Of a stretch of DNA of 64,000 nucleotides, positions 5,200 through 45,640 are shown one piece after another (position 1 is the stretch's first letter; every line of letters starts with the position of its first letter). Position numbers and translations under genes: made by a program. The stretch is from contig JAWLHR010000002.1 of NCBI GenBank assembly GCA_041690295.1, positions 128,001-192,000 on the forward strand, in the 5' to 3' direction. Under the pieces are notes generated by a model. It was not told the DNA's origin, did not search any database, and saw nothing but the letters and a program-made list of their open reading frames with translations. This stretch comes from Bdellovibrionales bacterium. GTDB taxonomy: Bacteria > Bdellovibrionota > Bdellovibrionia > Bdellovibrionales > UBA1609.

Positions 5200-6175
5200 G
5201 ATGAAGACATTTATCAAAGATTTAAAAGAGAAGGACCAGGTCCAATCCATTTTTTTGGTGACGGAAAAGAATTCGGGAACGGACCGTAACGGCAAAACGT
5301 TCTTGAGTCTCACGCTGTCGGATGCTTCGGGTCATATCAATGGCCGCATGTTCGAGCGTGCGGCGGAAGCGGGTCAGGGTTTCGATGTGGGCGATCCGGT
5401 ATGGATCAAGGGATTCGTGCAATTGTTTCAGAACCGGCGACAAATGATTCTGCATGAAATTCGCCGCGCGACGGACGGTGAATTTGAAATGACGGATTTG
5501 GTGGCTGAGCTGGGCGGTGACCCGAAAAAACATCTCCAGGAACTTCTGGAGATCGTGGATTCGCTGGACAATTCCTTCGCGCGTGAACTTTTGCGCCGGA
5601 CTCTCAATGATCCGGAGATAAACGCGTTATTACTTCGGGCGCCGGCGGCGAAAACCATTCATCACGCCTATCGGGGCGGATTGATCGAACACATTCACTC
5701 GATCACCAAAATGATGGTGTGGTTATCCGAGCATTACCCGTTCCTGGATAAGAACCTTTTGGTTTTCGGTGCGATTTTCCATGATCTGGGCAAGGTTTTC
5801 GAACTGGGAATGGACGACGGAATTCAGTACACACAAAGCGGGCGTTTGATCGGACACATGGTTTTGGCCTGCGAGATCGTGGATCGCATCGCTGGCGGCA
5901 TTCCTGATTTCCCGGTTGATTTGCGAGATGTGATGAAGCACATCATTCTCTCCCATCACGGAAAACTGGAGTACGGTTCGCCGAAGCTGCCGATGATTTT
6001 GGAAGCGGTGGTGGTGTCCATGATCGATGATCTGGACAGCAAGGTGAACACGATCTCCCGCTTCTTAAAGTCGGAAGTGCAGAGTCTTCCCCCGAATGAG
6101 AAGTGGAGTCATTACCACGCGGGATTCGAGCGCTATTTCTTCCTCGACTTTTTCCGTAAGCGGGTGGAGTCTTGA
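5192..6175 (+). CDS. yhaM: 3'-5' exoribonuclease YhaM family (OB fold + HD domain)
   Basis: N-terminal OB fold, PAAKTIHHAYRGGLIEH, FHDLGK, ILSHHGKLEYGSPK and IDDLDSK motifs. Confidence 0.9.
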   Translation: MSEMKTFIKDLKEKDQVQSIFLVTEKNSGTDRNGKTFLSLTLSDASGHINGRMFERAAEAGQGFDVGDPVWIKGFVQLFQNRRQMILHEIRRATDGEFEMTDLVAELGGDPKKHLQELLEIVDSLDNSFARELLRRTLNDPEINALLLRAPAAKTIHHAYRGGLIEHIHSITKMMVWLSEHYPFLDKNLLVFGAIFHDLGKVFELGMDDGIQYTQSGRLIGHMVLACEIVDRIAGGIPDFPVDLRDVMKHIILSHHGKLEYGSPKLPMILEAVVVSMIDDLDSKVNTISRFLKSEVQSLPPNEKWSHYHAGFERYFFLDFFRKRVES

Positions 6176-6354
6176 TGCGCGCCCGCTTCTGCGCGCTCAA
6201 TCATATTTAGAAGTGGAATCTTGATGCGCTCCTGCTTCCGATTTGGAAGTGGAATCTTGATGCGCTCCTGCTTCCAATCGGGAACTGGAAGCTTGACGCG
6301 TGCCCACTTCCGAATCGGAAGTGAACTCTTGATGTGCTCCACCCCGAATCGGAA
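6164..6354. repeat. 36-bp tandem array containing the palindrome CACTTCCGAATCGGAAGTG
   Basis: Units begin at 6213, 6249, 6285 and 6321 (approximately GTGGAATCTTGATGCGCTCCYRCTTCCGAATCGGAA). A related head at 6164 includes the yhaM stop. Perfect 19-bp palindrome at 6305-6323. Confidence 0.9.
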
Positions 6355-6364
6355 CGTGTGAGGT

Positions 6365-7018
6365 CTAAATGATCAACACGACCGGTTCCGCGTCGTCCAA
6401 ATCAGTGACAGCTGTCAAGTCACGACCCTTGCCGCGGATCACCCGCTCATTTTCCTGGGTGAGGTTCAATCCTAAAACGCAATTCCGCTCAGCGAAGTGG
6501 GTGGCCAGTTCTTGCGCGAGAATTCCCGCGCGATAAGGTGTTTCAAGAAGAATGATGGGTCGGTTTTCCTTGCGCAACTCACGCCAGCGGCGTTCGCGCT
6601 CTTCTTTTTTTGTCGGCAAAAAACCGGCGAAGAAAAAACTTTCCAATCGATGACCGGCCACCGAAAGGAGAGCCATCAAACTCGATGGTCCGGGGAGACC
6701 GTAAACCGGAATTCGCGCGCGATGGCAGGCGTCGACCAATTCCGCTCCGGGGTCGCAAAAACCGGGCGTGCCGCAATCGCTGACCAAGACGACATTTTTT
6801 TCGCGGCATTCACCGACAAAATACTGCACATCGTCTTGGGTCGAATGTTCATTGAGTTGATCCATGACTTTGGCTTGAACTCCCGCGGCCTTGAGAATTT
6901 GGCGCAACGCTTTGAGTTCTTCGCCGATGATCAAATCCGCATTTTTCATCGATTCAATGGCCCGCAAGGTGAAATCCTTGGGGTTTCCAATTGGTGTTGC
7001 GACCACGAAAAGCGCCAT
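6365..7018 (-). CDS. rsmI: 16S rRNA (cytidine1402-2'-O)-methyltransferase
   Basis: MALFVVATPIGN, LVSDCGTPGFCDPG, GFLP and ETPYR motifs. Start placed at ATG 7018. Confidence 0.9.
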   Translation of the reverse strand: MALFVVATPIGNPKDFTLRAIESMKNADLIIGEELKALRQILKAAGVQAKVMDQLNEHSTQDDVQYFVGECREKNVVLVSDCGTPGFCDPGAELVDACHRARIPVYGLPGPSSLMALLSVAGHRLESFFFAGFLPTKKEERERRWRELRKENRPIILLETPYRAGILAQELATHFAERNCVLGLNLTQENERVIRGKGRDLTAVTDLDDAEPVVLII

Positions 7019-7040
7019 GGTACTGTCGGTATCACATCTT

Positions 7041-7766
7041 ATGGCGCGGTGGAAAGTCCTCAAATCACAGGATTTATTTAAATCGGGCTTTTTCAGGCTC
7101 CGCGTGGACGAATGCGAACTTCCCGACGGCCGTATAATGCCTCGATATTATGTGATCGAGTTCCCTGACTGGGTGAATGTGGTGCCTGTGACCGATGACG
7201 GCCAAATGGTTCTGGTGGAGCAGTACCGGCATGGAGTGGTACGGCTAAATCAGAATCCGAACGGCGATCCCGCGCCGGCCTCGGATCAAGACTCCAAATC
7301 TCGCGCGCCGGCCTCGAATCAGGCCTCCAATGATCGTGCATCCACCGGTGAGAATCCAGGCCACTTTGGTTCAGTGGCCAACAATGGTTCTACCGCCAAT
7401 CACAAAGAAATATTCCTCGAGATTCCGGGTGGAAGCACTGATCCGAAAAATCACGAAGACCCGCGTTTGGCGGGCGTGCGCGAATTGCGCGAAGAAACCG
7501 GATATGAAGCGCGCGAATGGGTTTATTGCGGTTTTCACTATCCGAATCCCGCACTCCAAACCAACAAGATGCACACCTTCGTGGCGTTCGGTTGCACCAA
7601 AGTGGGAGAGCCGATGTTGGATCCCTACGAGGACCTGAAGGTGAGTGTGCTCCCCGTAAAAGAGGTTTATCGCCGTTGGTATGCGGGTGAAATCAAACAC
7701 TCGTTGATCTTCACATCGCTTGGCCTCGCCATTCCGCACTTGCGTAAGGCGGGCTTTGAGGTTTGA
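7041..7766 (+). CDS. Nudix hydrolase (ADP-ribose pyrophosphatase-like) with a low-complexity insertion
   Basis: VLVEQYRHG...LEIPGG...AGVRELREETGY Nudix box. Start placed at ATG 7041. Confidence 0.9.
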   Translation: MARWKVLKSQDLFKSGFFRLRVDECELPDGRIMPRYYVIEFPDWVNVVPVTDDGQMVLVEQYRHGVVRLNQNPNGDPAPASDQDSKSRAPASNQASNDRASTGENPGHFGSVANNGSTANHKEIFLEIPGGSTDPKNHEDPRLAGVRELREETGYEAREWVYCGFHYPNPALQTNKMHTFVAFGCTKVGEPMLDPYEDLKVSVLPVKEVYRRWYAGEIKHSLIFTSLGLAIPHLRKAGFEV

Positions 7767-7857
7767 TGGATTCCCCATCTGCGTAAGGCGGGCTTTGAGG
7801 TGTGATGGACCCATCCGTGTAAGGCGGGGTTGAGCTGTGATTGCGGGCGCTTTGAGC
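7741..7857 (+). repeat. Degenerate tandem duplication of the Nudix 3' end
   Basis: TGCGTAAGGCGGGCTTTGAGGTKTGATGGA at 7741 and 7780 (39-bp period), with decayed copies near 7816 and 7843. Confidence 0.85.
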
Positions 7858-7927
7858 TTTTTAGTGGCGGCGATCGGCGAGATTTTTTGCACTAGACGTA
7901 CGAGTTCAATGGTTGCGCAGGATCCAC

Positions 7928-9046
7928 TTAAAATATGCCTCGCGCGTTCCAACTATCAAATTGCTTTTCAAGCTCACACTTAAACTTTAATCGATTGTGA
8001 ACCGCGCACAGCAACTGTAGATTCTCCGGCTCGTTACCGCCTCCCGCGGATACTGACCGAATGTGATCCAATTGTAAGAGAAATCTCGAGCCACACTTCT
8101 TACCCGTAACCGGGTCCCGCCATTGGCAGCATCGGTCTCTTTGATAAATTTCGCGCCTCACATGAACCGGAATAGGCTGTCGTTTTCCGGTTAGTTTCAC
8201 ATGAGCAACAATGGATTTCACATTGCCAGCTCTCAAACCTGCAAACGTTGGCATCGGTTTCTTACGTGAGAGCTGATTCCTTGCGACTTCCGATTCGGAA
8301 GTGAAGTTCCGCCCTAAGGTTTTCTGGGTTTGGCGCGCTGAGGCCGGTTGCAAAACTTTTTCCTCAGCTTGTATCACCGGAAAGGACTTAACCGTTTTGG
8401 ACTTCGGACGAGTGGACTTCTTTAATAGCGGATCCTTACGTTTGACAAACTCCTCGGTAAGTGCCGCAAACAGCTCGGCCCAACCGGCTCGGGGAATTTT
8501 GTGCGACAAAAGCTCTTTCGCGCGATTGATCTGTTCAATCTGTTCTTTGGTCAAGGTAAACTCAATCCGCACCGACTCATCTTGCTGCACGCGCTTCTTT
8601 TCATATTGAATCGGCTTCACGTCGAGAACCCGCGCCAACACCTTTTGCGTCTCATTCACGTCCCGGCCCTTGATTCGTTGTAAGAGCTGACGCTTTTCCT
8701 GGTTTGAGAGTGAAACCTCCGGCGATTCTTTTTTCTTTTGCCTAAGACTTTGTGCCATCAATGACATTCGGCTCACGTTAAGCTGGCCAGACTCCAGGTC
8801 GTGTTTGGCCTCAGGAACCGCCCGGAGAATGCGAGCGGCATCAATTCGCCTTTGCGCCGAAGCGGGAGTGTAGCCGATCCCGTCTGTGAGATAAGCAAAC
8901 AAACTCGAATAGCCCAGTTTTAAATATAACTTTCGACGATCGATCTCTTTGATGTGCTCCAGAATCTCGGCAGTCGTTCGTCGCTCGACCTTCACAAGTT
9001 CGATCAGGCGTTGAACTAAAGATTGATCGGTTAAATTGGAAATCAA
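7928..9046 (-). CDS. HNH endonuclease with a helical (DUF222-like) N-terminal domain
   Basis: C-terminal RREIYQRDRCCQW...CGS..LQLDHIRSVSAGGGNEPENLQLLCAVHN. N-terminal LYLKLGYSSLFAYL..IGYT...AQRRI.AAR. Likely TTG start at 9046 after AAGGGGG; the ORF track extends it to 9115. Confidence 0.88.
   Translation of the reverse strand: MISNLTDQSLVQRLIELVKVERRTTAEILEHIKEIDRRKLYLKLGYSSLFAYLTDGIGYTPASAQRRIDAARILRAVPEAKHDLESGQLNVSRMSLMAQSLRQKKKESPEVSLSNQEKRQLLQRIKGRDVNETQKVLARVLDVKPIQYEKKRVQQDESVRIEFTLTKEQIEQINRAKELLSHKIPRAGWAELFAALTEEFVKRKDPLLKKSTRPKSKTVKSFPVIQAEEKVLQPASARQTQKTLGRNFTSESEVARNQLSRKKPMPTFAGLRAGNVKSIVAHVKLTGKRQPIPVHVRREIYQRDRCCQWRDPVTGKKCGSRFLLQLDHIRSVSAGGGNEPENLQLLCAVHNRLKFKCELEKQFDSWNARGIF
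8286..8302. repeat. Palindrome ACTTCCGATTCGGAAGT inside the HNH CDS
   Basis: Perfect 8-bp arms with a 1-nt centre. Encodes TSESEV in the HNH reading frame. Confidence 0.95.
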
Positions 9047-9177
9047 GCAAGCCCCCTTGAAAGCGAATTCACTTATAAAAAATCGGTTTGAAAAATGCGA
9101 GCACTTATGCGCCAAGTAAATAAAAATATTTTATCCGAACTTCGGACATTGGGAAGAGAGAAAAGGTTATCAGCGTT

Positions 9178-9386
9178 GGCTCATATTCGCACTTCCGAAT
9201 CGGAAGTGAGTAAGAGTAATTCTCACTCGAATCGGAAGTACGGGTGCATCGGCAAGGTAATTACCAATACCAATGCGCGGCTCATGCACTTCCGAACTGA
9301 AAGCACGGGTGCATCGGCAAGTTAGCTGCGAATTGAACTCGAATTGGGGCGCGACTCACGCCTTCCTCACTTCCGAATCGGAAGTT
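9178..9386. repeat. Cluster of four related palindromic units upstream of the HNH gene
   Basis: Perfect ACTTCCGAATCGGAAGT at 9191 and 9369, degenerate copies at 9224 and 9287. Direct repeat ACGGGTGCATCGGCAAG at 9240 and 9305. Confidence 0.9.
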
Positions 9387-9508
9387 CTGTCGCCTCATTC
9401 TTCAAAAAGCCGAAGCGGAAACCCATGCGCGTTGATCTTAATCCAAGAGATGCCAGCAAACGGAAGGAGGACCACCGAAACCACAAGCAAAAAAATGCTC
9501 TCGAAACC

Positions 9509-10285
9509 TTATCCCGCCTTCCGCAAGCGCTTGCGGAACCGGTGATCCACGGGCGTGGTCAGGGAATGCGCGCCGATCTTGTACTCGTTCTTGCGATACT
9601 TCTCGCGCAGGCGAACGATTAAGTTCAAACAAAACACCAAACTCACCGCCAACGGATCGAACACCGAAACAAACAACACGATCAACCACTTGACGGCGCG
9701 GTCCGGGTCCACATCGAAGGCGCGGGCGATGTACATCACCGGACCGACCTTGGCGTTCAAACCGATCATCGACTGGCGCTTCAATTCCACTTCGTGCAAA
9801 ATCGCATCAGAGCGTGCATGCAGCTCATCGATCTTGGGCTGGTATTCCTTCTGAAACTCAAACTTGCGGGAAATCCGTGAAGGCGGAATCTGATCGATGA
9901 ACCGCCGGTACTCAGCCGCCTGAGCCAGAACTCGATCGTTTTCACGCAGTAAAGCTTCGATTTCCATTCGGCGTAAATGCAGGTCACCCGCCGCCACGTC
10001 ATAGGCGTGGGATAAATAGCCGAAGATCCCTATGCTCGTGATGGCCATGAGAACCACCACCGAAAAAATCAAATAACTCCGCAGGGGCCGGTGGATATGA
10101 CCCCAATAACGATACACGAAGCCCACAATAATGAATTTACTCAACTCCAGCGCGCCCGCCATGACCGCCACGGACTTGGGCGCGCCACCGAAGAGCTGGG
10201 CCAATCCGGTGATCGAAAATAAGGCGCCCGTGATTGAGACGATCACCGTGGCGACTAATAGCAGCACCAAATAAACAACACTCAT
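9509..10285 (-). CDS. Membrane protein (3 N-terminal TMs, coiled coil, C-terminal TM)
   Basis: Hydrophobic segments, with GALELSK, ITSIGIFGYLS, VGPVMYIA and VFDPLAV motifs. Confidence 0.8.
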   Translation of the reverse strand: MSVVYLVLLLVATVIVSITGALFSITGLAQLFGGAPKSVAVMAGALELSKFIIVGFVYRYWGHIHRPLRSYLIFSVVVLMAITSIGIFGYLSHAYDVAAGDLHLRRMEIEALLRENDRVLAQAAEYRRFIDQIPPSRISRKFEFQKEYQPKIDELHARSDAILHEVELKRQSMIGLNAKVGPVMYIARAFDVDPDRAVKWLIVLFVSVFDPLAVSLVFCLNLIVRLREKYRKNEYKIGAHSLTTPVDHRFRKRLRKAG

Positions 10286-10341
10286 GCACTATATTGATCG
10301 GCCCATCTCGGCTCGAAATAAAGCCAGGCTAAGGTCCTGGA

Positions 10342-11862
10342 TTATTGAGTGGTGATGCCCATGCACGTCGGCTCACCAGTGAAATCAGCGAACACGATCG
10401 GCGAAATGCCTAGGTGATCGACGGTTCGAGAAACCGCGACGATCTGGTTCTGCCACGGGTCCGAGTGGGCCGTAGAAGGCCTGAGATAAAGGCATCTCTC
10501 CTGGTCTGTGATTCTGCCCTTTACGAAGTCCCAAGTGGAGCCTTCCGGTTTTTTAATTTCAACTTTGGCGACAACATTTTGGAATATGAAAACGCCAGCA
10601 AAATTCAAGCGCAGACTGGGATCACGAGCTTTGTTAAAATTGGGAGACGGATTGAACTCGAAAATAATCATGGATTGACGATCTCCGATTTTTTTCTCGT
10701 GTTTGAAATCCAATTCGGCGAACGTAACCATGAAGTAGTCGCGATTTAAATCGCGCGCGGAAGAAATAGTCACTTTGTCGGGTGTGTGGGCGGCGAACAC
10801 TTTTGTTTGACCACCCGCTCGCAGCGCGATTTTCAGTTTCTTCATAGGATATTCGTCTACGATTTCGAATTGCGCCTCACAATCCGCGATCTTTTCGCCC
10901 GTGGGCGTTCGGCACACGTCAACCTTGCGGCCGAGGCTTTCCTCAACCGTGAGAAGCTTTAAGAAATCGGCGAGAGGCATCTCTTTAATCGAGTCGAAGC
11001 CTTCGGGAACGGTGCTTTGCTCATTATCCAAGAATCTTTTGTCGAAATTGTTATAACGAAGGAGATCATCGAACTCCCGCCAGGTCATCGTGCGCCCACG
11101 TTCGAACAGAATGTCGGTGACACGTCGAATGGCGAAGTAATCTTGCCGGTTCAGCGGGCGTCGCGGTTCGGCTTTAAGCACAACGTCCATGTGGTTGAGT
11201 TCCCCGTCCGCGAAGTCAATTTTGGCTTTCGGATCCACCTGTTTGAACCGCCGCAGGATATCCGAGAATTTTTCGAATCGCAGGAGATAAAGTTGCATCA
11301 CGATTTCATGCAGGATGAGACGGGCGAATTCGCGGTCGTTGGTGTTATCGGTCTTCTTGGAGTCAATCCAAATTTCTTCGCGATCCTGACAGGCGAGTTG
11401 TTCCACGCCGTTTCCGGCGAAGCTTACGCCCAAGGTGTCTTTGTCCACGCAACTCATGTTCAAGGGGATTAGGTACCAGCGCTTTAATTTCAGCCAGATG
11501 CCGAGGTCATTCATGCTATCGTTTTCCGACGATTCCTCGGCTTTCTCTGACTTATTCAAATTGTCGATGATCGGCTGAATGTACTCCTTAAAACCCCGGA
11601 GCTGGGTGGGGTCCACGATGTAGGATTCGAACGGCTGACCAAGGACTCCATTGCCGCCACCACCATCGGTTGTGCCCTGAAATTTCCCGTTGCCTCCTGG
11701 ATTCGGCGACTGACCGCCTGGGCCATGGGCGTCCTCTATGGCCGGAGCGACACCCTTCACTTGGCGGCGGTTGTCCCGGTGACAGGCGCCGATAAAGGTC
11801 ACCATCGCCAATAAAAGGCAAAACAGCGTCCGGCTTGAGAGGTTAATCGCTTGTAAAACCAT
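10342..11862 (-). CDS. Hypothetical lipoprotein
   Basis: Lipobox FIGAC, G-rich linker with GGGGNG, LILHE motif, RBS AAGGAG. Confidence 0.75.
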   Translation of the reverse strand: MVLQAINLSSRTLFCLLLAMVTFIGACHRDNRRQVKGVAPAIEDAHGPGGQSPNPGGNGKFQGTTDGGGGNGVLGQPFESYIVDPTQLRGFKEYIQPIIDNLNKSEKAEESSENDSMNDLGIWLKLKRWYLIPLNMSCVDKDTLGVSFAGNGVEQLACQDREEIWIDSKKTDNTNDREFARLILHEIVMQLYLLRFEKFSDILRRFKQVDPKAKIDFADGELNHMDVVLKAEPRRPLNRQDYFAIRRVTDILFERGRTMTWREFDDLLRYNNFDKRFLDNEQSTVPEGFDSIKEMPLADFLKLLTVEESLGRKVDVCRTPTGEKIADCEAQFEIVDEYPMKKLKIALRAGGQTKVFAAHTPDKVTISSARDLNRDYFMVTFAELDFKHEKKIGDRQSMIIFEFNPSPNFNKARDPSLRLNFAGVFIFQNVVAKVEIKKPEGSTWDFVKGRITDQERCLYLRPSTAHSDPWQNQIVAVSRTVDHLGISPIVFADFTGEPTCMGITTQ

Positions 11863-11887
11863 GGCGGGTTTCTCCTTTCAAATTCCG

Positions 11888-11937
11888 TGCAAAACTGACC
11901 GGTCCGGAGCGTGAGGCGCCGGACCGGCGGTTTTGCA
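11888..11937 (-). terminator. Long hairpin just after the stop of the 11941 gene
   Basis: TGCAAAAC..CCGGTCCGG...CCGGACCGG..GTTTTGCA inverted repeat. Confidence 0.5.
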
Positions 11938-11940
11938 ACC

Positions 11941-12348
11941 TTAGAAGCGGAAGCATGAGACCGAGACTTTATTGGGCTCGGAAATCAAGGTCAAAGCTCT
12001 AGAGCCCCACGCGGTCGAATGGGATTGCAGAAGCTCGTCCAAGTTGCTGGCCGTCACCTTGCCGATCGAAACGATCAATTGTTGCGGGTCGTTCTCGGGC
12101 TTTGACGTGTAAACCAAGGTGGCGCCGTCGATGGCTTTCCAGTCTTGATAGGCCATGTCGTCGAACTTCTTCAGGGTCACCTTCTTGCCTTGGATGATAA
12201 TCGCCTGACCGGTCACATCCTGAGCGGACATGACTTCCTGATCATATGAACCCTTCTCGTTGGGGTTCTCACCGTAAACGGCGCACATGATTTTCGCATT
12301 GGCGTTCAATCCGGCGATCATGAGAGCGGCTAAGACTAACTTTTTCAT
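11941..12348 (-). CDS. Small secreted hypothetical protein
   Basis: AAGGAG RBS followed by the signal peptide MKKLVLAALMIAGLNANA. Confidence 0.8.
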   Translation of the reverse strand: MKKLVLAALMIAGLNANAKIMCAVYGENPNEKGSYDQEVMSAQDVTGQAIIIQGKKVTLKKFDDMAYQDWKAIDGATLVYTSKPENDPQQLIVSIGKVTASNLDELLQSHSTAWGSRALTLISEPNKVSVSCFRF

Positions 12349-12455
12349 TTTCTTCTCCTTTGTTTTTGTTCGCGGCTTCATGCCGCGAGTTCGAAGCCAA
12401 TATACCGGCTCGACCTTCGTCGAAATAGATGGAGTTTAGTAAAAAGTAATGAAGA

Positions 12456-12476
12456 ACTTTTACCGATAGTAAAAGT
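12456..12476. promoter_or_regulatory. Inverted repeat abutting a start codon (candidate operator)
   Basis: ACTTTTAC-cgata-GTAAAAGT lies immediately before ATG 12477. Confidence 0.45.
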
Positions 12477-13277
12477 ATGGTTTCGGTTTTCGACTTCCAT
12501 GATTACCGGGAATTCTTAAGCGAATGGATTAAATCCGCGAAAATTCGAGGGGTTAAGTCTCGCTTGGCCGCCGCCGCCCAAGTCAGTCCGGCGATGATGA
12601 GTCTGATCTTCAAAGGCGAAAAACAAATGTCCATGGAACAAGCGGCTGAGGTGGCGGAGTTCCTTAATCTCAACGACTCGGAAACAGATTATTTCTTACT
12701 CTTAGTGGAACTGGGGCGCGCGGGCTCGTTTAAGCTCGAACAAAAGCTCAAGCGCAAAATGCGCGAGATGCAGAAGGAGGCGAGAAAAATCGCCAAACGC
12801 GTGCGCAAGGATCGTGATCTCTCCGACGAAGAAAAGGCGATTTATTACTCGAATTGGCTTTACACGGCCGTCCGCAATCTCTGCGCCATCGAGGAGTACG
12901 CGAATGTTCATCAAGTGTCGGCGCGCCTGGGATTGCCGGAATCACAAGTGGTGCGTGTGGTGGATTTTCTCCTCGAGCACGGGCTCTTGAAGAACGAAAA
13001 AAATCGTCTGACCTACGGCCCCGCGCACCTTCATATCAGTTCCGATTCGCCGTTCGTGAGTCGTCACCATCAGAACTGGCGGCTTCAAGGATTCAAACAC
13101 ATGGACCAACTCACGGAGAGCAATCTCTTCTATACCTGTCCGATGTCGCTTTCCAACGAGGCGGTCGAGAAGGTGAGAAAGCTTTTGCCCACCGTCATCG
13201 ATCAGGTTTTGAAGATCGTCGGCCCCTCCAAATCGGAGCGCGCGTTTTGCTTTAATATTGATTGGTTTGAGTATTGA
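12477..13277 (+). CDS. TIGR02147/DUF4423 family protein with an N-terminal HTH
   Basis: FDFHDYREFL start, HTH-like SRLAAAAQVSPAMMSLIFKGEK, YYSNWLY, HHQNWR, C-terminal FNIDWFEY. Confidence 0.85.
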   Translation: MVSVFDFHDYREFLSEWIKSAKIRGVKSRLAAAAQVSPAMMSLIFKGEKQMSMEQAAEVAEFLNLNDSETDYFLLLVELGRAGSFKLEQKLKRKMREMQKEARKIAKRVRKDRDLSDEEKAIYYSNWLYTAVRNLCAIEEYANVHQVSARLGLPESQVVRVVDFLLEHGLLKNEKNRLTYGPAHLHISSDSPFVSRHHQNWRLQGFKHMDQLTESNLFYTCPMSLSNEAVEKVRKLLPTVIDQVLKIVGPSKSERAFCFNIDWFEY

Positions 13278-13287
13278 TCACATCATA

Positions 13288-13304
13288 ACTTCCGATTCGG
13301 AAGT
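13288..13304. repeat. Palindrome ACTTCCGATTCGGAAGT between convergent genes
   Basis: Perfect copy in the 32-bp gap between the stops at 13277 and 13310. Confidence 0.95.
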
Positions 13305-13309
13305 CGCTA

Positions 13310-14059
13310 TCACCCGCTCCGCCGCGAATCCAGCCAATCGCCATGAAAGCCCATTCCGATCGTCGGCAAATCCGTGGGCGTCGGCGCCCGGCCCGAATGA
13401 ACGGAATTCACGAACACGATTCGCACATTCGGGACCGCCGCGCGCACTTCGTTGATGATCACCGGCTCGTTCTCAAAAAACCAGATATGATCGAACTTCG
13501 GCGCAAGGCTTTTTAACGTCGTGGTTTTGTAATGCTCATCTGTTTCCACTTCGAGCGGTTTCATGAGAAGTCGCGAATCGGAAACCAGAGGAAAGCCGAA
13601 CTTCGCCAGGGACGACAAAGTTCCCGAACGCATCAAAGTTTCGGGTCGACCCGTCAGGTAAAAAACGTCGGCTCCCAATTCGTGCAAATGCCGAACATAC
13701 TCATTGGCCGCCGGGTAAATCTGATCGTGATCGAGAAAATGACTGCTGAAAAACCGACTGCGCCAGTAATCGCGAACCTGCTTAAAAAATTCCTGGGGTC
13801 CCTCGGGATGGTAACGCTGCATCAGCGAGCGCAGTCCCCAATCCGTCGGTAACACTTCCACTTCCGCGAGTACCGCGGCCTGCTTCTCAAATTGCGCTTG
13901 AAATTTGGGATCGCGGCCCAGCGAGCGAAGGATCGCTTGCGTGCGAAAACTCACACAAAACAAAGTCGAGTCCAAGTCAAAAAAGACTCCCACCCGAGAG
14001 TTTCGCGCGTGTATCCGCACGAACTCACTCACCATTTTTAGTGCATCAGTTTGAGACAT
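13310..14059 (-). CDS. HAD-superfamily phosphatase
   Basis: FFDLDSTLF (motif I) and YLTGR (motif II). Confidence 0.8.
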   Translation of the reverse strand: MSQTDALKMVSEFVRIHARNSRVGVFFDLDSTLFCVSFRTQAILRSLGRDPKFQAQFEKQAAVLAEVEVLPTDWGLRSLMQRYHPEGPQEFFKQVRDYWRSRFFSSHFLDHDQIYPAANEYVRHLHELGADVFYLTGRPETLMRSGTLSSLAKFGFPLVSDSRLLMKPLEVETDEHYKTTTLKSLAPKFDHIWFFENEPVIINEVRAAVPNVRIVFVNSVHSGRAPTPTDLPTIGMGFHGDWLDSRRSG

Positions 14060-14248
14060 CCCGGCGTAAGTTTACGAAAATCGTCAAACCCTTGCAAACC
14101 GCACTGAAGCGCACTTTGACAGTTTTCGTGAACTTTCCAAAAACTGCCTCAAGATCTGACATCCAGCTGTAATCGTTAGCGTTTTCAGGGCATTGGCCTT
14201 GAGACGAGGCCCCGCCCGTCCGAGAAGGAGGGGCAGAAGGGGAGCGGT

Positions 14249-19114: not shown

Positions 19115-19119
19115 TTTGA

Positions 19120-20607: not shown

Positions 20608-20653
20608 GTCGCACGATACGTAAAACCCACGGCAGATCCTAAAGGAGGGATCT

Positions 20654-29687: not shown

Positions 29688-29896
29688 AAAGGACCCCTCC
29701 TTGGTTGACGGGATTGCACAAAGCGTTACCCGCCCAGTTCACACTCCATAGGGAACTGTGAAGACAATTTTATTAGCCCATTGGCTGGTTTCAATTTGTA
29801 ACCGGAAAACTGGACCTTTTAGTGCTCGGCAGCATTGAAGCGCTCCTTATATTTTGCTAAGCACTTGATGAATGCTCATTGATAAAGGAGTTCCAG

Positions 29897-32585: not shown

Positions 32586-32590
32586 GAATC

Positions 32591-35938: not shown

Positions 35939-36353
35939 TAGGCCGTTCCAAATCAGGATGCATAGCAGCTTTTCTTGATCCTGTCCGCCCCTCACCCTGA
36001 AATGGAATCGGGGAAAAGGGGATGTCGATGAAGCAAATCAGAGCGGGCATCGCCAATGCGGTGACTGCGATTTGCGATCCCCATAACTTCGACCATGACG
36101 AACGCCCGCTCAGTTATTTCCGGCACCCGTCAACGTTAGAGCGGGTTACGAAAATCCTGCTCGTGAATCCCACCATCCGCGAACGGTTGGCGTGCCGAAA
36201 ACAACCGGCCTTTCCCTATTGCGGAGAATGAGGTGCTCTTGAATAGAGCTCTTTCCAAGGGTTCCGGTGAGTTCCCTTTGAGGTCAGCCTGTGTTTCGCG
36301 CGGGGCAACGGGGCCTGATGAGTTCGCCTGATGGCATATAGATTAAATTTATT

Positions 36354-36405
36354 TATTCCGAATCGGAAGTCACTCACGGCGCTATTCCAAACGGAAGTCA
36401 CGGCG
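36354..36405. repeat. Two degenerate copies of the palindrome family
   Basis: TATTCCGAATCGGAAGTCAC (36354) and TATTCCAAACGGAAGTCAC (36383). Confidence 0.75.
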
Positions 36406-36453
36406 AGCAAAAGTGAAGATCGGAAACCACGTGAGTCGAATCAGCCCGCGACC

Positions 36454-37764: not shown

Positions 37765-37831
37765 CAGAAATCTCCTTTGGCTTTGGACAGGCTGCCAAAT
37801 TAACGGTAATTTGGTCCCAAGTAAAAGCGAT

Positions 37832-38833: not shown

Positions 38834-39426
38834 CACTTAAAGAACGAATCCTCGTACTTAAGGTTTTCAAGCACGGCGAAGCGGATTTGATCGTGCACGG
38901 GTTGAATCCATTGGGCGCGCGCATGAACTTTTTCGCCCGAGGAGCCGCGAAGAGCCGCAAACGCTTTGCCGGTGGGATTTTGGAACCCACCCATTATCTT
39001 GAGGTGACCTATCGCCAAAGCACCCGGCAGGATGAAGATCCTTTGCACTCACTGCTCGAGGCGCAGTTGATTCGCGAATTCCCTAAGCTGCGCAGTGATT
39101 ATGAGCGCCTGGATGTGGCCTTGCACTTGTGCAAGATCGTGCACAAGCTCAGCCGGCAGGGCGTGGTGGATTCGCCGGAACTGTTTAACCTTCTTGGCAA
39201 TGCGCTGGCCGCGGCCGAGGTGAGCCGGGATCTTCCCAAACTGAAATCGCACTTCGAACTCAAACTTTTGGCCACGCAAGGCGTTTTACCGGACGAGCCG
39301 CAGTTTCAACCATGGCTGGCGGCAAGTCTTGCGCAGCATGAACAAATCCACATGAATGGCGAGGAACGGCGCCGGGTGGAGCAGCAGGTTCATGAGCATC
39401 TTCGCCAGTATTTGGGCTTGCTCTAA
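38830..39426 (+). CDS. recO: DNA repair protein RecO
   Basis: HGEADLIV...ARGAAKSRKRF.GG.LEP and FELKLL motifs. Confidence 0.88.
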   Translation: MTLKERILVLKVFKHGEADLIVHGLNPLGARMNFFARGAAKSRKRFAGGILEPTHYLEVTYRQSTRQDEDPLHSLLEAQLIREFPKLRSDYERLDVALHLCKIVHKLSRQGVVDSPELFNLLGNALAAAEVSRDLPKLKSHFELKLLATQGVLPDEPQFQPWLAASLAQHEQIHMNGEERRRVEQQVHEHLRQYLGLL

Positions 39427-41492
39427 AAATTCGTCGTGAATGTCGCGGTCGTCATGATCGTGTACTTGCTGTACTCGTAGGACGCTTCTTCAGTGGAATC
39501 ATTTTTGGTGTAACTGGCGGTAACGCCCCAGCTGACCCATTCACGTATGGGTTTATCCACACCGGTTGTGATGGTTATGTTGAAGTCTTTTCGGCTGTCA
39601 TCGGAGTCGGCGTAGTTCAAGTCATAAGCCGACAGACCGAAGTTCCATGAATAACCCCATTTCATCGGGCGGATATAAGTGGCCCCGATATCGATACGAT
39701 TGAACTTCTTGTTCTTTCCGCTGGCATTGTTCATGGTGTAGCCGAGGTTCGCCACCAAAGCTTCTTTTCGCGCTTTATCCATGTAAAAGCTCTGCGTGGT
39801 CTTGAGCGTGTATTTCATCGCATCGTAGTTGTTATCGCCCACGGAATCGCCCAATTCGAAGTCGTCCCGGCGCACTTCCAGTGAATAAATGGCGAACCAG
39901 TTGTTCCGCATGACGAACAGGTTATCAAAACTCACCAACTGCGAAGCCAAAGTGCGCGACTTGGTCCCTTCCTTATTCGCATCCATGAACAGGAGTTCGT
40001 AGGCCGGTTTCACGGTGAAAACGTAGCCTTTGCCCCAGACCACGGTCTTATAGCTGTACGGAGCGTTGAAATTGTAGAGAAAGGGGTCGGCGTGGGCGAC
40101 CTCGGATTTCGAAGAGTTGGTGAGGCTGGCCGTGCCTTTCAATGAAAATTCATGGTGTTGATTGTAGACCGCGCGGTAAGTGAGATCGCCGACCGTGATC
40201 AGACGGGCGTCGGCCTCTTTGGTGGCCGTGGAGCTGACGGTATCAGGCGTCAGCAAAACGTTCGAGTCGTAACTCAATCCCAGAACGCCGTTGGCGGTCC
40301 AACGCTTTTCCTGGAGTTTCTTGAACATCAGAGCTTGCGCGATCCGATCCAGATATTCTTCCGCCTGTTGATCCATGCGGGCGTCGCGGGATGTATCGAT
40401 CACGCGTTCAAAACTCTTCTTCGCCGCCTCGAAATCGGATTGCGAATACTGAACCACTCCCAAATAAAAGGCGGCTGAAGGACCCATTATGGGGTCGCTG
40501 GATTCAGCGGCCTTGGCCAGCGCGGCCCGTGCGTTATCCAGCTCGTTCAAGCGGTAATGGGTCAAGCCGATGAAATATTGCCGTTCGGTTTCGAGCTTTG
40601 GTTCCACGGTCGCCAGCTTCAGGATCACCAAAGCTTCATTGAACTTGTTTCTCCGATAAAGCGTCACGCCGTAACGGAAATAAAAAGTTTTGTTTTCAGG
40701 ATCGAGTTCAACGGCTTCGCGAAACTTGGCTTCGGCTTTTTCGAATTCACCTTGCGTGTAAAAAGCCATGGCCGCATCGGCCGCCGCCACCGCTTTTCTC
40801 CGCCGGGCCGCGCGTTCACGCTCGGAAGCTAATTTGGCTTGGCGCGCGCGTTCCTCGGCTTTTTGACGCTCGATTTGCTCCAGGCGAATGCGCTCGGCCT
40901 CCCGTTCGGCGGCCTCGATGGCCAATTTCGCCAATGCGGCTTTATGGGCGGCATCCTGTGCGGCCGCCACGGCGTCTTTGTCGGGGACTTGCTTCAGCAG
41001 TTTTTGTTTTTTGGCTTCCGCTTCAAGCCGCTGCTTTTCCTGATAGGCTTTGAGCGCGGCTTCGGCCTGTTCTTTGGTGTCATAGACATCAATCAGCGCG
41101 CGCCCACTGGGATCCTTTTTGATGATCAGGGGTTTGCGGGGAAGCTGCTTACTTTGAATCAGCTGGTGGACTTTTCTGTAGTCCTTTTCCGAGCGAAGGT
41201 GCTTGGGCGGAATATAAACCTCAGGCTGCAAAGGCTGGCCGCCGAGGCTCACACTGAACTGACCGGTGAAGTTTGAAGAATCCGGTTCCGTCTCCTCCAG
41301 CTGGATCTGAACGATTTTTCCAGTGGATTTATCCTTCACGACCATGAAGGCGGAATCGATCTTGCGGCTGTCCGTATTCCAAGATGGTGATCCATAATTA
41401 ATGTTGATCGGGTGATGATCGACGAGAATTTTCTCGTTTGCCCCTGCGGAAGGGGAAAACGCACCTAGCCAGAATGCGAGAAGAATAACCAA
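39423..41492 (-). CDS. TPR + outer-membrane beta-barrel protein
   Basis: Signal peptide, coiled coil, TPRs, YDSNV barrel start, terminal Phe. Confidence 0.75.
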   Translation of the reverse strand: MVILLAFWLGAFSPSAGANEKILVDHHPININYGSPSWNTDSRKIDSAFMVVKDKSTGKIVQIQLEETEPDSSNFTGQFSVSLGGQPLQPEVYIPPKHLRSEKDYRKVHQLIQSKQLPRKPLIIKKDPSGRALIDVYDTKEQAEAALKAYQEKQRLEAEAKKQKLLKQVPDKDAVAAAQDAAHKAALAKLAIEAAEREAERIRLEQIERQKAEERARQAKLASERERAARRRKAVAAADAAMAFYTQGEFEKAEAKFREAVELDPENKTFYFRYGVTLYRRNKFNEALVILKLATVEPKLETERQYFIGLTHYRLNELDNARAALAKAAESSDPIMGPSAAFYLGVVQYSQSDFEAAKKSFERVIDTSRDARMDQQAEEYLDRIAQALMFKKLQEKRWTANGVLGLSYDSNVLLTPDTVSSTATKEADARLITVGDLTYRAVYNQHHEFSLKGTASLTNSSKSEVAHADPFLYNFNAPYSYKTVVWGKGYVFTVKPAYELLFMDANKEGTKSRTLASQLVSFDNLFVMRNNWFAIYSLEVRRDDFELGDSVGDNNYDAMKYTLKTTQSFYMDKARKEALVANLGYTMNNASGKNKKFNRIDIGATYIRPMKWGYSWNFGLSAYDLNYADSDDSRKDFNITITTGVDKPIREWVSWGVTASYTKNDSTEEASYEYSKYTIMTTATFTTNF

Positions 41493-41579
41493 GATGTCGA
41501 CTCCTTAGCGCGCTCAAAAAATTGATTCTCTACCGAATAGGATAGCCAATTCCGACACAGCAAGGAACGGTTTTATTCC

Positions 41580-42698
41580 TTATTGGGTATTGACATGAAT
41601 GATCAGGCGGCTGTTGCCCTGTTCGATTCCCGAGCGGCATCCGTCGCCACAGACGGGAATCACACCGCCGATGGGCGGGAGTACAGGAACCGGAGCCGGA
41701 GGCTCGGGTGGTTTAGGCATCGCACCAGTGCCTGGACCTGCGTCGGGCACATTGCACATCGTACAAGCCGATTCCGAAGCTGGAGCGTTGGCCGGTGAAC
41801 GACCACCTTCGCCTCCAGAAGAACCACCAGCACCACCGGCGCCGCCAGGACCACCGGTTCCGGCGGATTGACCTTCACCGCCGCCGCCACTGGAGCCCGT
41901 GCCTCCGCTTTCACCTTCGTTAGCGCCGCCGGTTCCCGCTTGCTTATCGGGAGCACCGGATTGTTCGTTCTTTGCTCCACCTTCCTCTTTCTTACCTGAA
42001 TCGTCTTGCGTGTTACTTGCGGTGTTCTGAGTGTTAGAGCCGCCGGTAGGCGCGTCGGCCTGAGTCTCCGAATCCAAGCTGTTCAACTGTTCTTTGGGTA
42101 CCGGAGCTGGAGGCGTGGGCGCCGAACCAGGCGAGTTGGTCGCGGACATACCGGGAGTCACAATGACCGGATTGGCGATGGTGCCGCCGGGGCCGGGCAA
42201 TCCGAATTCGACCTTACCGGAAAAGGTCACGACCTGACTTTGATTGTTCTGGAAGCCGACCATGAAGTCGGTTCCGCGCACGCCCGCCACCGCGGAGGGC
42301 GTCTTGATCTGGAACTTGCTGCTCTTCGTGCCGTCGTATTTTTGTTCCACTTTGGAACGCACTTTTCCGTAGATCACATTGAGAAGAACGTCTTTCTTGT
42401 TGGCTGACGGATTGTACTCGTAGTGCTGGATCTCAATTTGAGAATCGGGGGAAACGTTGATTTCGTTATTGTCGATCATAACGATTTTGGCGCGGGAGTC
42501 TTTGCCGGTGATCACGGTGTCTTTGGGAAAAACCTTGGCGCCGACGCGGGCTCGTGATTGCTGTCCGTTTTTGCCGGATTTAATCTGGACATCGCCCTTC
42601 ACAACCCGCAACACGCCATGCACGTTTTGCGCGTAAGCGTCGGGAATTGAGAAAGCGACAAAGAAAATCGCACAAACCCACGCGTAACATACGTTCAT
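41580..42698 (-). CDS. Secreted FecR-domain protein with a G/P-rich tail
   Basis: VITGKDSRAKI and FQIKTPSAVAGVRGTDF (FecR-like); low-complexity C-terminus. Confidence 0.85.
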   Translation of the reverse strand: MNVCYAWVCAIFFVAFSIPDAYAQNVHGVLRVVKGDVQIKSGKNGQQSRARVGAKVFPKDTVITGKDSRAKIVMIDNNEINVSPDSQIEIQHYEYNPSANKKDVLLNVIYGKVRSKVEQKYDGTKSSKFQIKTPSAVAGVRGTDFMVGFQNNQSQVVTFSGKVEFGLPGPGGTIANPVIVTPGMSATNSPGSAPTPPAPVPKEQLNSLDSETQADAPTGGSNTQNTASNTQDDSGKKEEGGAKNEQSGAPDKQAGTGGANEGESGGTGSSGGGGEGQSAGTGGPGGAGGAGGSSGGEGGRSPANAPASESACTMCNVPDAGPGTGAMPKPPEPPAPVPVLPPIGGVIPVCGDGCRSGIEQGNSRLIIHVNTQ

Positions 42699-42802
42699 AA
42701 TTTCACCCCGGTTTGGATTGTCCGCGCCAACAGCGGATCCATCTTCTTTTCGGAATATATTGAAGAAAGCTCAACAGTTGCGCCAATTTGAGAACGAGTG
42801 TC

Positions 42803-43339
42803 TCAGTCCCGTAAAATGATCTCTTCCGCGACGGACAAGAGATTGGTGGAATGGACTTCCGGCGGAAGAAACGGGGAGTTTTCCGGGGATTCCATCGTTC
42901 CGACCAAAGCCGAGCGGCATCCCGCCCGGTGACCGGCCTCGACATCGGTCATACGATCACCGATCATCCAACTCCGCTTGAGATCCAAGTTATGCCACCT
43001 GGCCGCCTCGAGCAGCATTCCCGGATTCGGTTTTCGCATGGGATGATTGAAATCCGTCATGTAAGGCGCACTGTGAAAGGTGAGAAAATCAACGCCTTCA
43101 CTGCTGAATTTTTCGCGAATGCGGCGGTGAATTTCATCCAAGTTTCGCACGTCCACGATTCCGCGGGCTACGCCGGATTGATTGGTGGCCACGCAAAACA
43201 CGAAATTGTGATCGCGTAAAAGTCTGAGCGCTTCAAAAACTCCGGGTAGATATTCGATTTTGTCGGGTTCATTCAGATACACCATATCCACGATTAAGGT
43301 GCCGTCCCGATCCAACAAAATCGCTTTTTTTGCCGACAT
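42803..43339 (-). CDS. gmhB: D,D-heptose 1,7-bisphosphate phosphatase (HAD IIIA)
   Basis: LDRDGTL, TNQSG, RKPNPGM and IGDRMTD motifs. Confidence 0.85.
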   Translation of the reverse strand: MSAKKAILLDRDGTLIVDMVYLNEPDKIEYLPGVFEALRLLRDHNFVFCVATNQSGVARGIVDVRNLDEIHRRIREKFSSEGVDFLTFHSAPYMTDFNHPMRKPNPGMLLEAARWHNLDLKRSWMIGDRMTDVEAGHRAGCRSALVGTMESPENSPFLPPEVHSTNLLSVAEEIILRD

Positions 43340-43348
43340 GAAGGCACC

Positions 43349-44404
43349 TTATCCGAGTTCTTCATCCTTTTTGAGCTTTGACACAAGGGCGCCCTTGGAC
43401 TTTGAGAGCGGATGATGTTTTTCGATTTTTTCCGCGAGTAAATCCAGACTGAGATGAGTGTACTTTTGGGTCGCGGCCAGTGATCGATGTCCAAGCAACT
43501 CCTGAATCACTCGCAGATCAGCGCCTGAAGTGAGCAGGTGAGTGGCATAGCTATGACGTAGAGCATGTGGATTCAACGGACGGAGTAGACCCGCGCGGGC
43601 GCCCGCGGCTCGCACCCAGCCATAGGCTTTGCGTGGCGAGAGTGGCTGATCGGTATCGGTGAGCACATAGGGCCCGCTCCGCGAAGATTCCAATTTCCTT
43701 AAAGCCTCCCAACAAAGCTCGGGAAGAGTCACCAATCGCTGCCGATCACCCTTACCGTGCACGAGAAGGGTTCGATTCGATGGTTTTAAATCAGACCACT
43801 TTAGCCGGCAGGCCTCGCTCACGCGCAGCCCACCGCCGTAAAGGAGCAGCACCAAGGCGGTGACCCGGGGCTCGTCGAGCGCTTTCAAAAGCGCCAGCGC
43901 TTCGTCGACGGAAATGAAGTGGGCCAATTGCTGCGGCCGTTTCGGTGAATGAATTTGGAGAGCCAGCGGTTCATCGATCCATTTCTTTTCATAGAGCCAT
44001 TTGAGAAAGCCGCTGACCACGGCCCACTTGCGATTTCGTGAGCTGGCTTTAAGATCGGCCCACCGGAATTTGGCTTTTTGCAGAAGGTCTTTTAACGATT
44101 TTTCATCCCACGTGGGGCAAATACTTTGATTTTCTTTCTCGATGATTTGGTAAGAAGTAACTGGGGTTACCGAGGTGTATAAAATCTTTTGTACCCCTAT
44201 TGGAGCCAGGAATTGAGCCAAATCATTGGCATAAGACTTGGATGTATGATCGCTTGCAGTCCGCTGTACACTTAAGTATTTCAGGTACTTAAGTGCAAGA
44301 ATGGCCAAATTTGGTCGCTCTTGAGGTGACAATGTGGGGCGCTCCGAAAGGATTAAATTTCCTACATTTCCCTTGCAAAAAAGACTTGCACAAACGCTCA
44401 GCAT
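43349..44404 (-). CDS. xerC: Tyrosine recombinase, XerC-like (true start probably about 44308-44332)
   Basis: GLRVSE, GKG, HALRHSYATHLL, IQELLGH and TQKYTH give an intact R-K-H-R-H-Y set. Confidence 0.75.
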   Translation of the reverse strand: MLSVCASLFCKGNVGNLILSERPTLSPQERPNLAILALKYLKYLSVQRTASDHTSKSYANDLAQFLAPIGVQKILYTSVTPVTSYQIIEKENQSICPTWDEKSLKDLLQKAKFRWADLKASSRNRKWAVVSGFLKWLYEKKWIDEPLALQIHSPKRPQQLAHFISVDEALALLKALDEPRVTALVLLLYGGGLRVSEACRLKWSDLKPSNRTLLVHGKGDRQRLVTLPELCWEALRKLESSRSGPYVLTDTDQPLSPRKAYGWVRAAGARAGLLRPLNPHALRHSYATHLLTSGADLRVIQELLGHRSLAATQKYTHLSLDLLAEKIEKHHPLSKSKGALVSKLKKDEELG

Positions 44405-44489
44405 CTGTTAGAACACCGTGTCGACTTAAGACGCGCTGAGTTGTAACGGCGGGGGGAGCTGAAGCAACACTTAGGAAGGGGTTGTACGT

Positions 44490-45575
44490 ATGTCGGGTAT
44501 GGATAAATCTTCTCACTTTCCCTCCGCTGGAACAGGTGAGAGCACTTCACTTCCCACCGCGAATCCATCCGCGGTCGCCTCGGGTTCAAATACCAATGTT
44601 AATGAGAATCGACGCATTGTCTACAAGTCCGAGGTCATGCGCCAGCTCATGCGCATGGTGGATCGTGTGGCTCCCAGTAACGCCACGGTCCTGATTTTGG
44701 GTGAAAGTGGAACAGGAAAAGAGCTGGTGGCGAACGCCATTCACGAGCGTTCCAATCGCCGGCATAAGCCGTTCGTCGCGATCAATTGCGGCGCTCTCCG
44801 CGAGACGCTTTTGGAGAGCGAGCTCTTCGGACACGAAAAAGGCGCTTTCACCGGCGCGTATTCGCGCAAAATCGGATTGGCTGAAGTGGCCAATGGCGGA
44901 ACTTTGTTCCTCGACGAGATCGGTGAGTTGAGCCCTGGCATTCAAGCCAAGTTGCTCCGCTTTCTGCAAGAAGGCGAAATCTATCGCGTGGGCGGCAAAG
45001 ATCCGATTCGCGTCGACATCCGCTTGATCAGCGCGACCAATAAAGAATTGGATAAAGAAGTTCTGCGCGGCAATTTCCGCGAGGACCTCTTCTACCGCAT
45101 CAACACCATCATGGTTCATTCACCTCCGCTCCGTCGCCGCAAGGAAGACATTCCGGCGTTGATCGAGCACTTCCTGAGCACGAACACCGCGGGTTTCTTG
45201 AACCGCGGCCGTCAGATGTCGGAAGAAGCGATGAAGATCATGATGAAATACGACTGGCCGGGCAACATCCGTGAACTGCAAAACGTTTGCGAGCGTTTGC
45301 AGATTCTCTCCGAAGGCCACGTGATCATGCCGGGTGATCTGCCGGATCATATTCGAAATCCCGATCACAAAGTGGTGATCGATGATTACGATCCGACGAT
45401 GACTCTGCACGAATTGGAAAAGCGCTACATCTTGAAGGCGCTCAATTACTTTGACGGCAACAAAACTCAAGCCGCCAACGCTTTGGGCATCACCATCAAG
45501 ACGCTTTACAATAAGCTTCACGAGTACGGCGAGTTCGAAAAGTACGCCGTTCACTCCAAGCCGGCCGTTAAATAA
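44490..45575 (+). CDS. Sigma-54 enhancer-binding protein without an N-terminal regulatory domain
   Basis: GESGTGKE, GAFTGA, LFLDEIGE, WPGNIREL and a Fis-type HTH; only an S/T-rich N-terminal tail precedes the AAA domain. Confidence 0.92.
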   Translation: MSGMDKSSHFPSAGTGESTSLPTANPSAVASGSNTNVNENRRIVYKSEVMRQLMRMVDRVAPSNATVLILGESGTGKELVANAIHERSNRRHKPFVAINCGALRETLLESELFGHEKGAFTGAYSRKIGLAEVANGGTLFLDEIGELSPGIQAKLLRFLQEGEIYRVGGKDPIRVDIRLISATNKELDKEVLRGNFREDLFYRINTIMVHSPPLRRRKEDIPALIEHFLSTNTAGFLNRGRQMSEEAMKIMMKYDWPGNIRELQNVCERLQILSEGHVIMPGDLPDHIRNPDHKVVIDDYDPTMTLHELEKRYILKALNYFDGNKTQAANALGITIKTLYNKLHEYGEFEKYAVHSKPAVK

Positions 45576-45605
45576 CAGCGGGTTTTAGAGCCTAAAAGAA
45601 CTTGG

Positions 45606-45640
45606 AACCCACTTCCGAATCGGAAGTGGGTTTTGTTTTT
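45606..45640. repeat. Extended palindrome copy acting as a probable terminator
   Basis: AACCCACTTCCGA-A-TCGGAAGTGGGTT (45606-45632) followed by a T-rich tract, between convergent genes. Confidence 0.9.

Follow-up and report, generated by a model that had tools for sequence, protein, structure and literature searches.

A palindrome carried within the coding sequence of HNH nuclease genes and at dispersed sites in Bdellovibrionota genomes

Results

HNH gene and palindrome in the window

The window analysed here, a whole 64-kb stretch of a Bdellovibrionales genome (assembly GCA_041690295.1, contig JAWLHR010000002.1), encodes a DUF222-like/HNH nuclease and contains six perfect copies of a 17-bp palindrome, one of which lies in frame within the nuclease gene. 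The features concerned are:

6205..6356, no strand: 36-bp tandem array in the yhaM/rsmI gap, its unit being a TGAYGC arm, 6 nt, the core and 7 nt; perfect core at 6306-6322
7767..13309, no strand: 5.5-kb block between the NUDIX and HAD genes, with the HNH gene and four open reading frames (ORFs); the HNH gene and the 13288 copy lie at opposite ends
7928..9046, minus strand: DUF222-like/HNH nuclease gene, 372 aa, HNH = PF01844; one of 12 family loci in the source genome (G000)
7961..8179, minus strand: HNH domain; D327, H328, N342, C347, H350 and N351 invariant in a 36-sequence alignment
8286..8302, no strand: perfect palindrome, in frame in a low-confidence linker (codons 249-254, TSESEV)
8432..8575, minus strand: predicted strand-helix-helix (ribbon-helix-helix-like) module, residues 158-205
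8615..8989, minus strand: predicted ParB/KorB/SopB-like helix-turn-helix domain, residues 20-144 (6s6h, Z 6.3, root-mean-square deviation 3.5, 98 aligned)
9052..9077, minus strand: putative -10-like hexamer (TATAAG) and ribosome-binding site, read from the sequence
9191..9207, no strand: perfect copy 145 bp upstream of the HNH start, central base inverted relative to the internal copy
9223..9304, no strand: two partial copies with 4 mismatches (9223, 9288) inside short local duplications
9369..9397, no strand: perfect copy, with 5/6 of an outer arm (GCCTCA) six bases off
13288..13304, no strand: perfect solo copy at the right border of a lineage-specific block
36354..36398, no strand: 2-mismatch copy and weak partial repeat in the nuoI/ugd gap
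45605..45640, plus strand: perfect copy (45611-45627) within a longer stem, followed by a T run

A first-pass annotation of this DNA had proposed the six perfect copies, and all were recovered, at positions 6306, 8286, 9191, 9369, 13288 and 45611. Its claim that they far exceed chance also held, the window containing eight matches at three or fewer mismatches against a shuffle mean of 0.26 and maximum of 2. Among the degenerate copies that it listed, those at 6234 and 36354 have only two mismatches, and the remaining five have four (9223 and 9288), five (6270) or six (6340 and 36382), three of the degenerate copies being array units. The window holds 27 matches at five or fewer mismatches and 90 at six or fewer, and copies with four to six mismatches are weak alone and count only as units of local repeats, as in the 36-bp array, where 6234, 6270, 6306 and 6340 are in register. 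The array opens with the end of yhaM. In one contig of sequencing run X4 the region 6181-6241 is shorter by roughly one unit of the array (this contig alone, at depth 3, and so a hint at most), and none of the short and shallow contigs obtained from sequencing runs bridges an empty site.

The 2.88-Mb source genome contains 10 perfect 17-mers, the annotation having suggested that such a genome-wide count be made, and 5 of these 10 lie inside the HNH gene or within 5 kb of it. The half-sites ACTTCC and GGAAGT separated by five bases occur 17 times in G000, compared with zero or one time at every other spacing from 0 to 20. When the in-gene copy and the two upstream copies are set aside, three of the seven remaining perfect copies are less than 40 kb from the HNH gene (p ~7e-4, post hoc). 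The proposed tie between repeat and HNH gene holds for one matching paralogue, to which the enrichment is limited; at none of the 11 other HNH-family loci of G000 was an exact or one-mismatch 17-mer found less than 38 kb from the match.

The four gaps between convergent genes reported by the annotation (yhaM/rsmI, TIGR02147/HAD, nuoI/ugd and sigma-54 activator/methyltransferase) are as described. In G000, gaps at gene 3' ends are favoured and none of 12 gap or contig-end sites lies between divergent genes. A convergent-gap statistic was not relied on: in crude gene calls, where convergent gaps make up 26% of gap DNA, 6 of 10 two-neighbour sites are convergent, or 5 of 10 once a missed Y1 gene on contig C14 is counted. 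Symmetric extension of the flanks, considered as a trace of fold-back repair, was also set aside, since the 26% of 86 sites with at least 3 bp of extension mostly represent longer shared units; in G000 it reaches 3 bp at 2 of 17 sites. Eight exact matches in viral contigs, with no HNH-family or Y1 match within the 1.5 kb examined, were treated as background. As read by eye, the solo copy at G000:C9:118664 immediately precedes a toxin-antitoxin-like gene pair, and that at C25:38535 immediately follows a tRNA-like sequence.

Inheritance of the linker palindrome

The linker palindrome is an inherited part of the gene family. Homologous loci were found by alignment-based search, a single-protein locus search of genome contigs having given none, and comprised a first set of 119 intact homologues from 156 loci and a wider set of 189 genes; the named homologues belong to Bdellovibrionota. 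In the 119 genes, near-perfect 17-mers occupy 35 of 4865 frame-0 linker positions, compared with 0.0-0.7 per 1000 in other frames and domains, and 35 genes carry a linker 17-mer, compared with a mean of 11.2 and a maximum of 19 after synonymous shuffling. In the wider set, 62 genes have a linker palindrome of 17 or 18 bp in which no more than one position is unpaired, against 16 (maximum 19) in control windows. These genes span 38 of 79 clusters at 60% identity, and the palindrome ends at the same codon phase in 56 of the 62. Where motifs were chosen by peptide alone, complementarity is found at both pairs of silent positions in 20 of 26 linker motifs versus 11 of 68 motifs in other G000 genes, indicating that the symmetry of the DNA itself is kept. 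In a tree built from 55 N-terminal domains, after omission of one short row, the class of word groups by clade, as inheritance predicts.

In some subfamilies the palindrome is lengthened to about 41 bp by outer arms (TGACGC/GCGTCA) 5-6 bases from the core, and the 36-bp array of the window is such an arm plus core, repeated. The arm was rejected as a universal feature, exact TGACGC-N29/30-GCGTCA being present in 10 of 41 genomes and accompanied by a palindromic core in G005 and G007 only. A profile of the N-terminal region matched 10,824 clusters at 50% identity (E<=1e-10).

Co-variation with dispersed and upstream copies

Across genomes the dispersed palindrome co-varies with the linker word of the HNH gene in the same genome, a relationship predicted by the annotation and supported by own-linker matches in G002, G005, G007, G040 and G009, with G012 excepted. 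Genome G002 has 21 copies of a G-C-ended variant, one of them within an HNH linker, and eight of its nine examined palindrome loci lack an HNH domain. One 18-mer occurs four times in G005 and five times in G007, with one copy per genome in an HNH linker. In G040, where different HNH clades bear different words, two further 18-mers with nine and six copies match two of these clades, and in G009 four solos match a linker at 15 of 17 positions. Solos with the linker word reach about 20 in a genome and include up to 41 bp of its arms.

Copies are also enriched on one side of the genes themselves. Within 1 kb of HNH genes, 30 own-core copies were found in 53.6 kb of upstream sequence and one in 54.8 kb of downstream sequence, while foreign cores near the genes number 0.02 per 10 kb; counted by independent cluster, an own palindrome lies at most 1 kb upstream in 12 of 29 and downstream in one. 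In three genes the upstream copy is directly 3' of a -10-like motif, and other upstream copies lie 34-59 bp before the TTGAC of the leader described below.

Two further observations concern the placement of copies. At L173:2097, L174:2109 and L358:1337 the palindrome falls within ORFs of other, unrelated genes, among them those for polyphosphate kinase and a TPR protein, and at L163:2110-3964 (G009:C55) a Fic-domain gene is bracketed by a direct repeat made up of a tRNA-Cys 3' end and the palindrome.

Predicted structure of the HNH protein

In the AlphaFold model of the 372-aa protein the N-terminal region is predicted with confidence and is joined to the HNH domain by a low-confidence linker. 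ParB, KorB, Spo0J and SopB align to residues 20-146 in both fold searches, and VirB in the full-length search alone. These matches, to five members of the ParB family, have Z scores of 4.4-6.3 over about 90-100 residues, below the trusted level of the tool, so that the ParB-like fold predicted for this region is a consistent lead, short of assignment. Residues 158-205 align with TraM, NikR, MazE6 and the ParB of pCXC100 at Z 4.3-4.5. A ParB CTPase domain was not detected, the ParB-like match starting at about residue 20, and there was no ParB Pfam match. The annotation had suggested a dimeric double-stranded-DNA-binding protein, and the fold predicted for the N-terminal region resembles palindrome-binding ParB domains. 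The 1-nt centre, which the annotation took to suit such a protein better than a conventional hairpin, is also compatible with a hairpin, because a single strand of the palindrome can form a stem of 7-8 bp closed by a loop of 3 nt.

The invariant residues of the HNH domain include catalytic and zinc-site positions. The fold is nearest to the HNH protein of phage GVE2, with the Gme nickase also among the matches, and only the HNH stretch matches the IscB profile (21 bits against a cut-off of 175). The HNH label of the annotation was confirmed by PF01844; as to its DUF222 label, PF02720 has no match in the window protein at E<=0.001 and is precomputed on many homologues, as well as on 12% of an Atlas neighbour cluster. 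A promoter and terminator consensus scan of 5800-14200 gave matches at chance level.

HNH genes as dispersed units

The HNH genes behave as mobile units with a fixed leader of about 260 bp plus the ORF, in many copies and with no transposase. The family was matched in 32 of 41 relatives, with up to 36 matches (not copy numbers) in a relative. Paralogues 80-97% identical are found at unrelated sites; most share about 250-270 bp upstream, and homology ends near the stop codon. The leaders (e.g. L014, L032 and L178) contain TTGAC(G)-nnn-TTTT about 190-240 bp upstream of the ORF, at a fixed distance before an extended -10-like box (182-184 nt in 69 of 92 scored leaders) across an unconserved spacer with phased A tracts. 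In sequence, this TTGAC motif is similar to TGACGC-nnn-TTT, the outer arm of the linker unit, and it may mark the left end of the element; the HNH copy of the window lacks it. A structured RNA in the leader was considered and rejected, the mean folding z being -0.5 and -0.2 with no Rfam match in seven loci. Seven HNH copies of one metagenome-assembled genome (MAG; L042, L047, L049, L050, L053, L059 and L078), 87-97% identical, also have about 260 bp downstream in common, and some have inverted ends and what looks by eye like a target duplication of 8-10 bp, as though an insertion sequence had taken them up.

The annotation had proposed comparing filled and empty orthologous sites. Of 14 congener loci, 11 hold both NUDIX and HAD genes; in all 11 there is no HNH gene between the two, and in five loci they are directly adjacent. 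This demonstrates gain at the site. It does not establish the palindrome as its cause, because the NUDIX/HAD junction also varies in congeners without the word, and that explanation was dropped. Nearby, the NUDIX gene contains about 55 additional codons in frame (window 7240-7410), which include an internal duplication and are missing from most congeners, and its last 39 bp are repeated 2.7 times just past the stop side of the HNH gene (window 7742-7841). The yhaM/rsmI gap, site of the 36-bp array in the window, is occupied at L262 (G013:C66) by a gene of another HNH subfamily.

Discussion

A probable cognate site carried by its own gene

The anatomy of the genes, the inheritance and symmetry of the linker palindrome, its upstream enrichment, its co-variation with the linker and its dispersal were all observed, and the pattern is real, general and not accounted for by a known family. 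It is probable that the palindrome is a cis-acting binding site for the predicted ParB-like domain of its own gene, in a selfish element that would copy itself by site-directed nicking and seed stray sites; within this interpretation, cognate binding is given more weight than nick-driven spread. The inferred steps of binding, cutting and spread would run as follows. By analogy with ParB on parS (PMC7383237, as outlined there), a dimer of the N-terminal region would bind the 17/18-bp core and perhaps also the outer TGACGC/GCGTCA arms, and palindromes beside the -10 box would repress the promoter. The tethered HNH domain, by analogy with related HNH domains, could nick near bound sites, and repair at the nicks may copy in the element or short pieces of the linker, or give rise to local tandem duplications like the 36-bp array. 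More tentatively, and with somewhat less than an even chance, the genes may represent a new class of transposase-free mobile elements, in which a ParB-type site-binding domain joined to an HNH nickase, with its own target in the gene, would use that target to link donor DNA to target DNA and would seed palindromes specific to each clade, at which accessory genes could later enter.

Several results weigh against this interpretation. The best ParB match (Z 6.3) is under the trusted level and tied with Raf1, and a Foldseek search of the predicted structure gave no match at E<=0.001 (best E 0.03). As many as 127 of the 189 genes lack a strict linker palindrome. Clade-wise grouping of the word is expected from inheritance of the in-gene word alone, the loci being non-independent; there is no simple protein-DNA code, several centres going with one recognition helix; and the near-identical words of G000 (L001) and G002 (L010) sit in distant clades. 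In G012 (80% complete), which has 20 copies, none of the 11 HNH matches, two of them truncated at contig ends, has a corresponding linker, and in G003 all five copies are in HNH genes or contig-end HNH fragments, with no solos. No consistent target-site duplication was found in 34 paralogue copies, and no terminal repeat defines most elements. Finally, the palindrome lies upstream of a RAYT-like gene (RAYT, transposase associated with repetitive extragenic palindromes, REPs) in one of seven cases in G000 and in four cases in G012.

These last cases bear on the possibility, considered unlikely, that the palindromes are REP-like hairpins moved by host RAYT-like Y1 (HUH) proteins, the HNH linkers and leaders being tolerant landing places and the HNH elements perhaps moved in trans. 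The annotation had seen no RAYT in the window and had regarded a RAYT flanked by the motif as evidence against its proposal; seven Y1/RAYT-like genes are present in the genome, and for one of them (G000:C14:20880-21547) a perfect copy lies 191 bp upstream, which goes part of the way in that direction. That gene and the four of G012 belong to one Y1 clade with the palindrome of the same genome upstream; at G000:C14 and at L166, L170, L353 and L355 the palindrome precedes the RAYT-like Y1 gene by 150-400 bp. Y1 genes are multi-copy (up to 24 matches per genome) and present in 32 of 41 relatives, six of the nine genomes without the HNH family also lack them, the word folds as a hairpin, and RAYT subclass 2.4 is described as a precedent for REPs within the cognate gene (PMC6006769, in the portion cited). 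Three of the G012 cases, however, may be a single capture because they have one leader in common, and none of the 58 Y1 genes of G002, G040, G005, G007 and G009 has a listed palindrome within 2 kb (two assemblies being fragmented). No GTAG tag recurs 5' of the stem, the flanks of the G000 sites vary, the palindrome does not flank the genes on both sides, and the Y1 proteins score far below the RAYT and IS200 cut-offs of NCBIfam. Independent landings fit poorly, because the linker position is fixed and the phase is the same in 56 of 62 genes.

Slightly less probable again is an autoregulatory operator and nothing else, with a promoter-proximal site and an in-gene auxiliary site, the solos being inert linker debris left by illegitimate recombination and the HNH domain uninvolved. 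The placement of extra copies upstream rather than downstream, three of them directly after a -10-like motif, would be expected of an operator, as would the lack of solos in G003 and likewise in one family of G009. It accords less well with solos that number up to about 20 per genome and retain the linker word and arms, or with the absence of G000 sites from gaps between divergent genes, and it leaves the spread of a transposase-free gene unexplained.

It is very improbable, and largely refuted by lineage-specific turnover of the word, that the palindrome serves an unrelated host factor of ParB, Noc or MatP type or acts as a plain bidirectional terminator. Despite the preference for gene 3' ends and the terminator-like stem and T run at 45611 (-22.2 kcal/mol), the word differs among congeners and is missing from orthologous gaps, the parS-like sites of G000 are a different word on another contig, and the in-frame linker copy is conserved family-wide. 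In many congeners the gap orthologous to that of the 45611 copy has ordinary terminator-like hairpins. Two copies of TGTTCCACGTGGAACA at G000:C3:102743-102796 are the likely parS sites of G000.

Comparison with known systems

The interpretation of the palindrome as a cognate site of the HNH protein places it nearest, in pattern, to REP/RAYT systems, without the tag and copy number of that family. In the REPtrons of REP/REPIN and RAYT, according to the sections cited, intergenic palindromes cluster at a nuclease gene whose nearby repeats match the dispersed family (PMC8266576), and the present palindromes are likewise short, mostly intergenic, clustered at a nuclease gene and co-varying between lineages. 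The enzyme here is HNH rather than HUH/Y1 and the site lies inside coding sequence. The 12 HNH-family loci are apparently mobile, whereas the RAYT gene is given there as single-copy, a GTAG tag is lacking here, and there are tens of copies rather than hundreds (PMC8266576, same sections). CGTC-tagged REPs were considered as a match for the outer arm and rejected, their tag having the opposite orientation in the account cited (PMC3733652).

With ParB-parS, Noc-NBS, KorB-operator and SopB-sopC the family shares a tentatively predicted helix-turn-helix fold and a palindrome of similar length, presumably for two monomers (PMC7383237, as summarised there), and it differs in the HNH fusion, the multi-copy gene, the clade-specific sites and a CTPase domain that was not detected. 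ParB-CTPase-HNH fusions have been reported, with a different domain pairing in the part cited (PMC12704722). Mycobacterial DUF222-HNH genes and REP13E12 regions, described as without defined function (PMC13061034, in the passage cited), resemble the present family in being multi-copy DUF222-type HNH genes, in keeping with PF02720 on many homologues; the cited portions mention no cognate palindrome, and the window protein has no direct PF02720 match (PMC13061034, PMC3592412). HNH domains are described as nicking alone or fused to a binding domain, and the GVE2-type fold and the layout of DNA-binding domain plus nuclease are shared with HNH homing endonucleases and phage HNH nickases (PMC3592412, in the same portions).

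Compared with insertion sequences of the DDE type, the present elements have no transposase and no consistent target duplication in the 34 copies, one MAG family excepted. Homing by free-standing HNH endonucleases destroys the target on insertion. Here, by contrast, the putative site is kept within the gene, and copies are found at many unrelated loci. OMEGA elements of the IS200/IS605 type, beside which HEARO is named, combine IscB, which has RuvC plus HNH, with an omegaRNA as structured guide; common to both are mobile units in which conserved non-coding sequence lies upstream of an HNH gene, but here the HNH stretch alone matches IscB and the leader has neither an Rfam match nor a folding signal.

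No description of the pairing of HNH gene and palindrome was found in the literature searched, mostly open-access text without supplements. The present analysis contributes a test at silent sites, the asymmetry between upstream and downstream copies, the outer arms, the leader of fixed length and the counter-evidence from Y1 genes. Despite its 10,824 clusters, the family has so far been annotated as HNH or DUF222 only, and if each gene names its own binding site, its function would be directly testable with short oligonucleotides. If the interpretation is correct, the family would be a natural library of more than 10,000 nuclease clusters, many with their own 17-41 bp target in the gene, and would offer many paired DNA-binding domains and sites for studying the evolution of specificity. 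It would also represent a second route, besides RAYTs, for the origin and spread of bacterial palindromic repeats.

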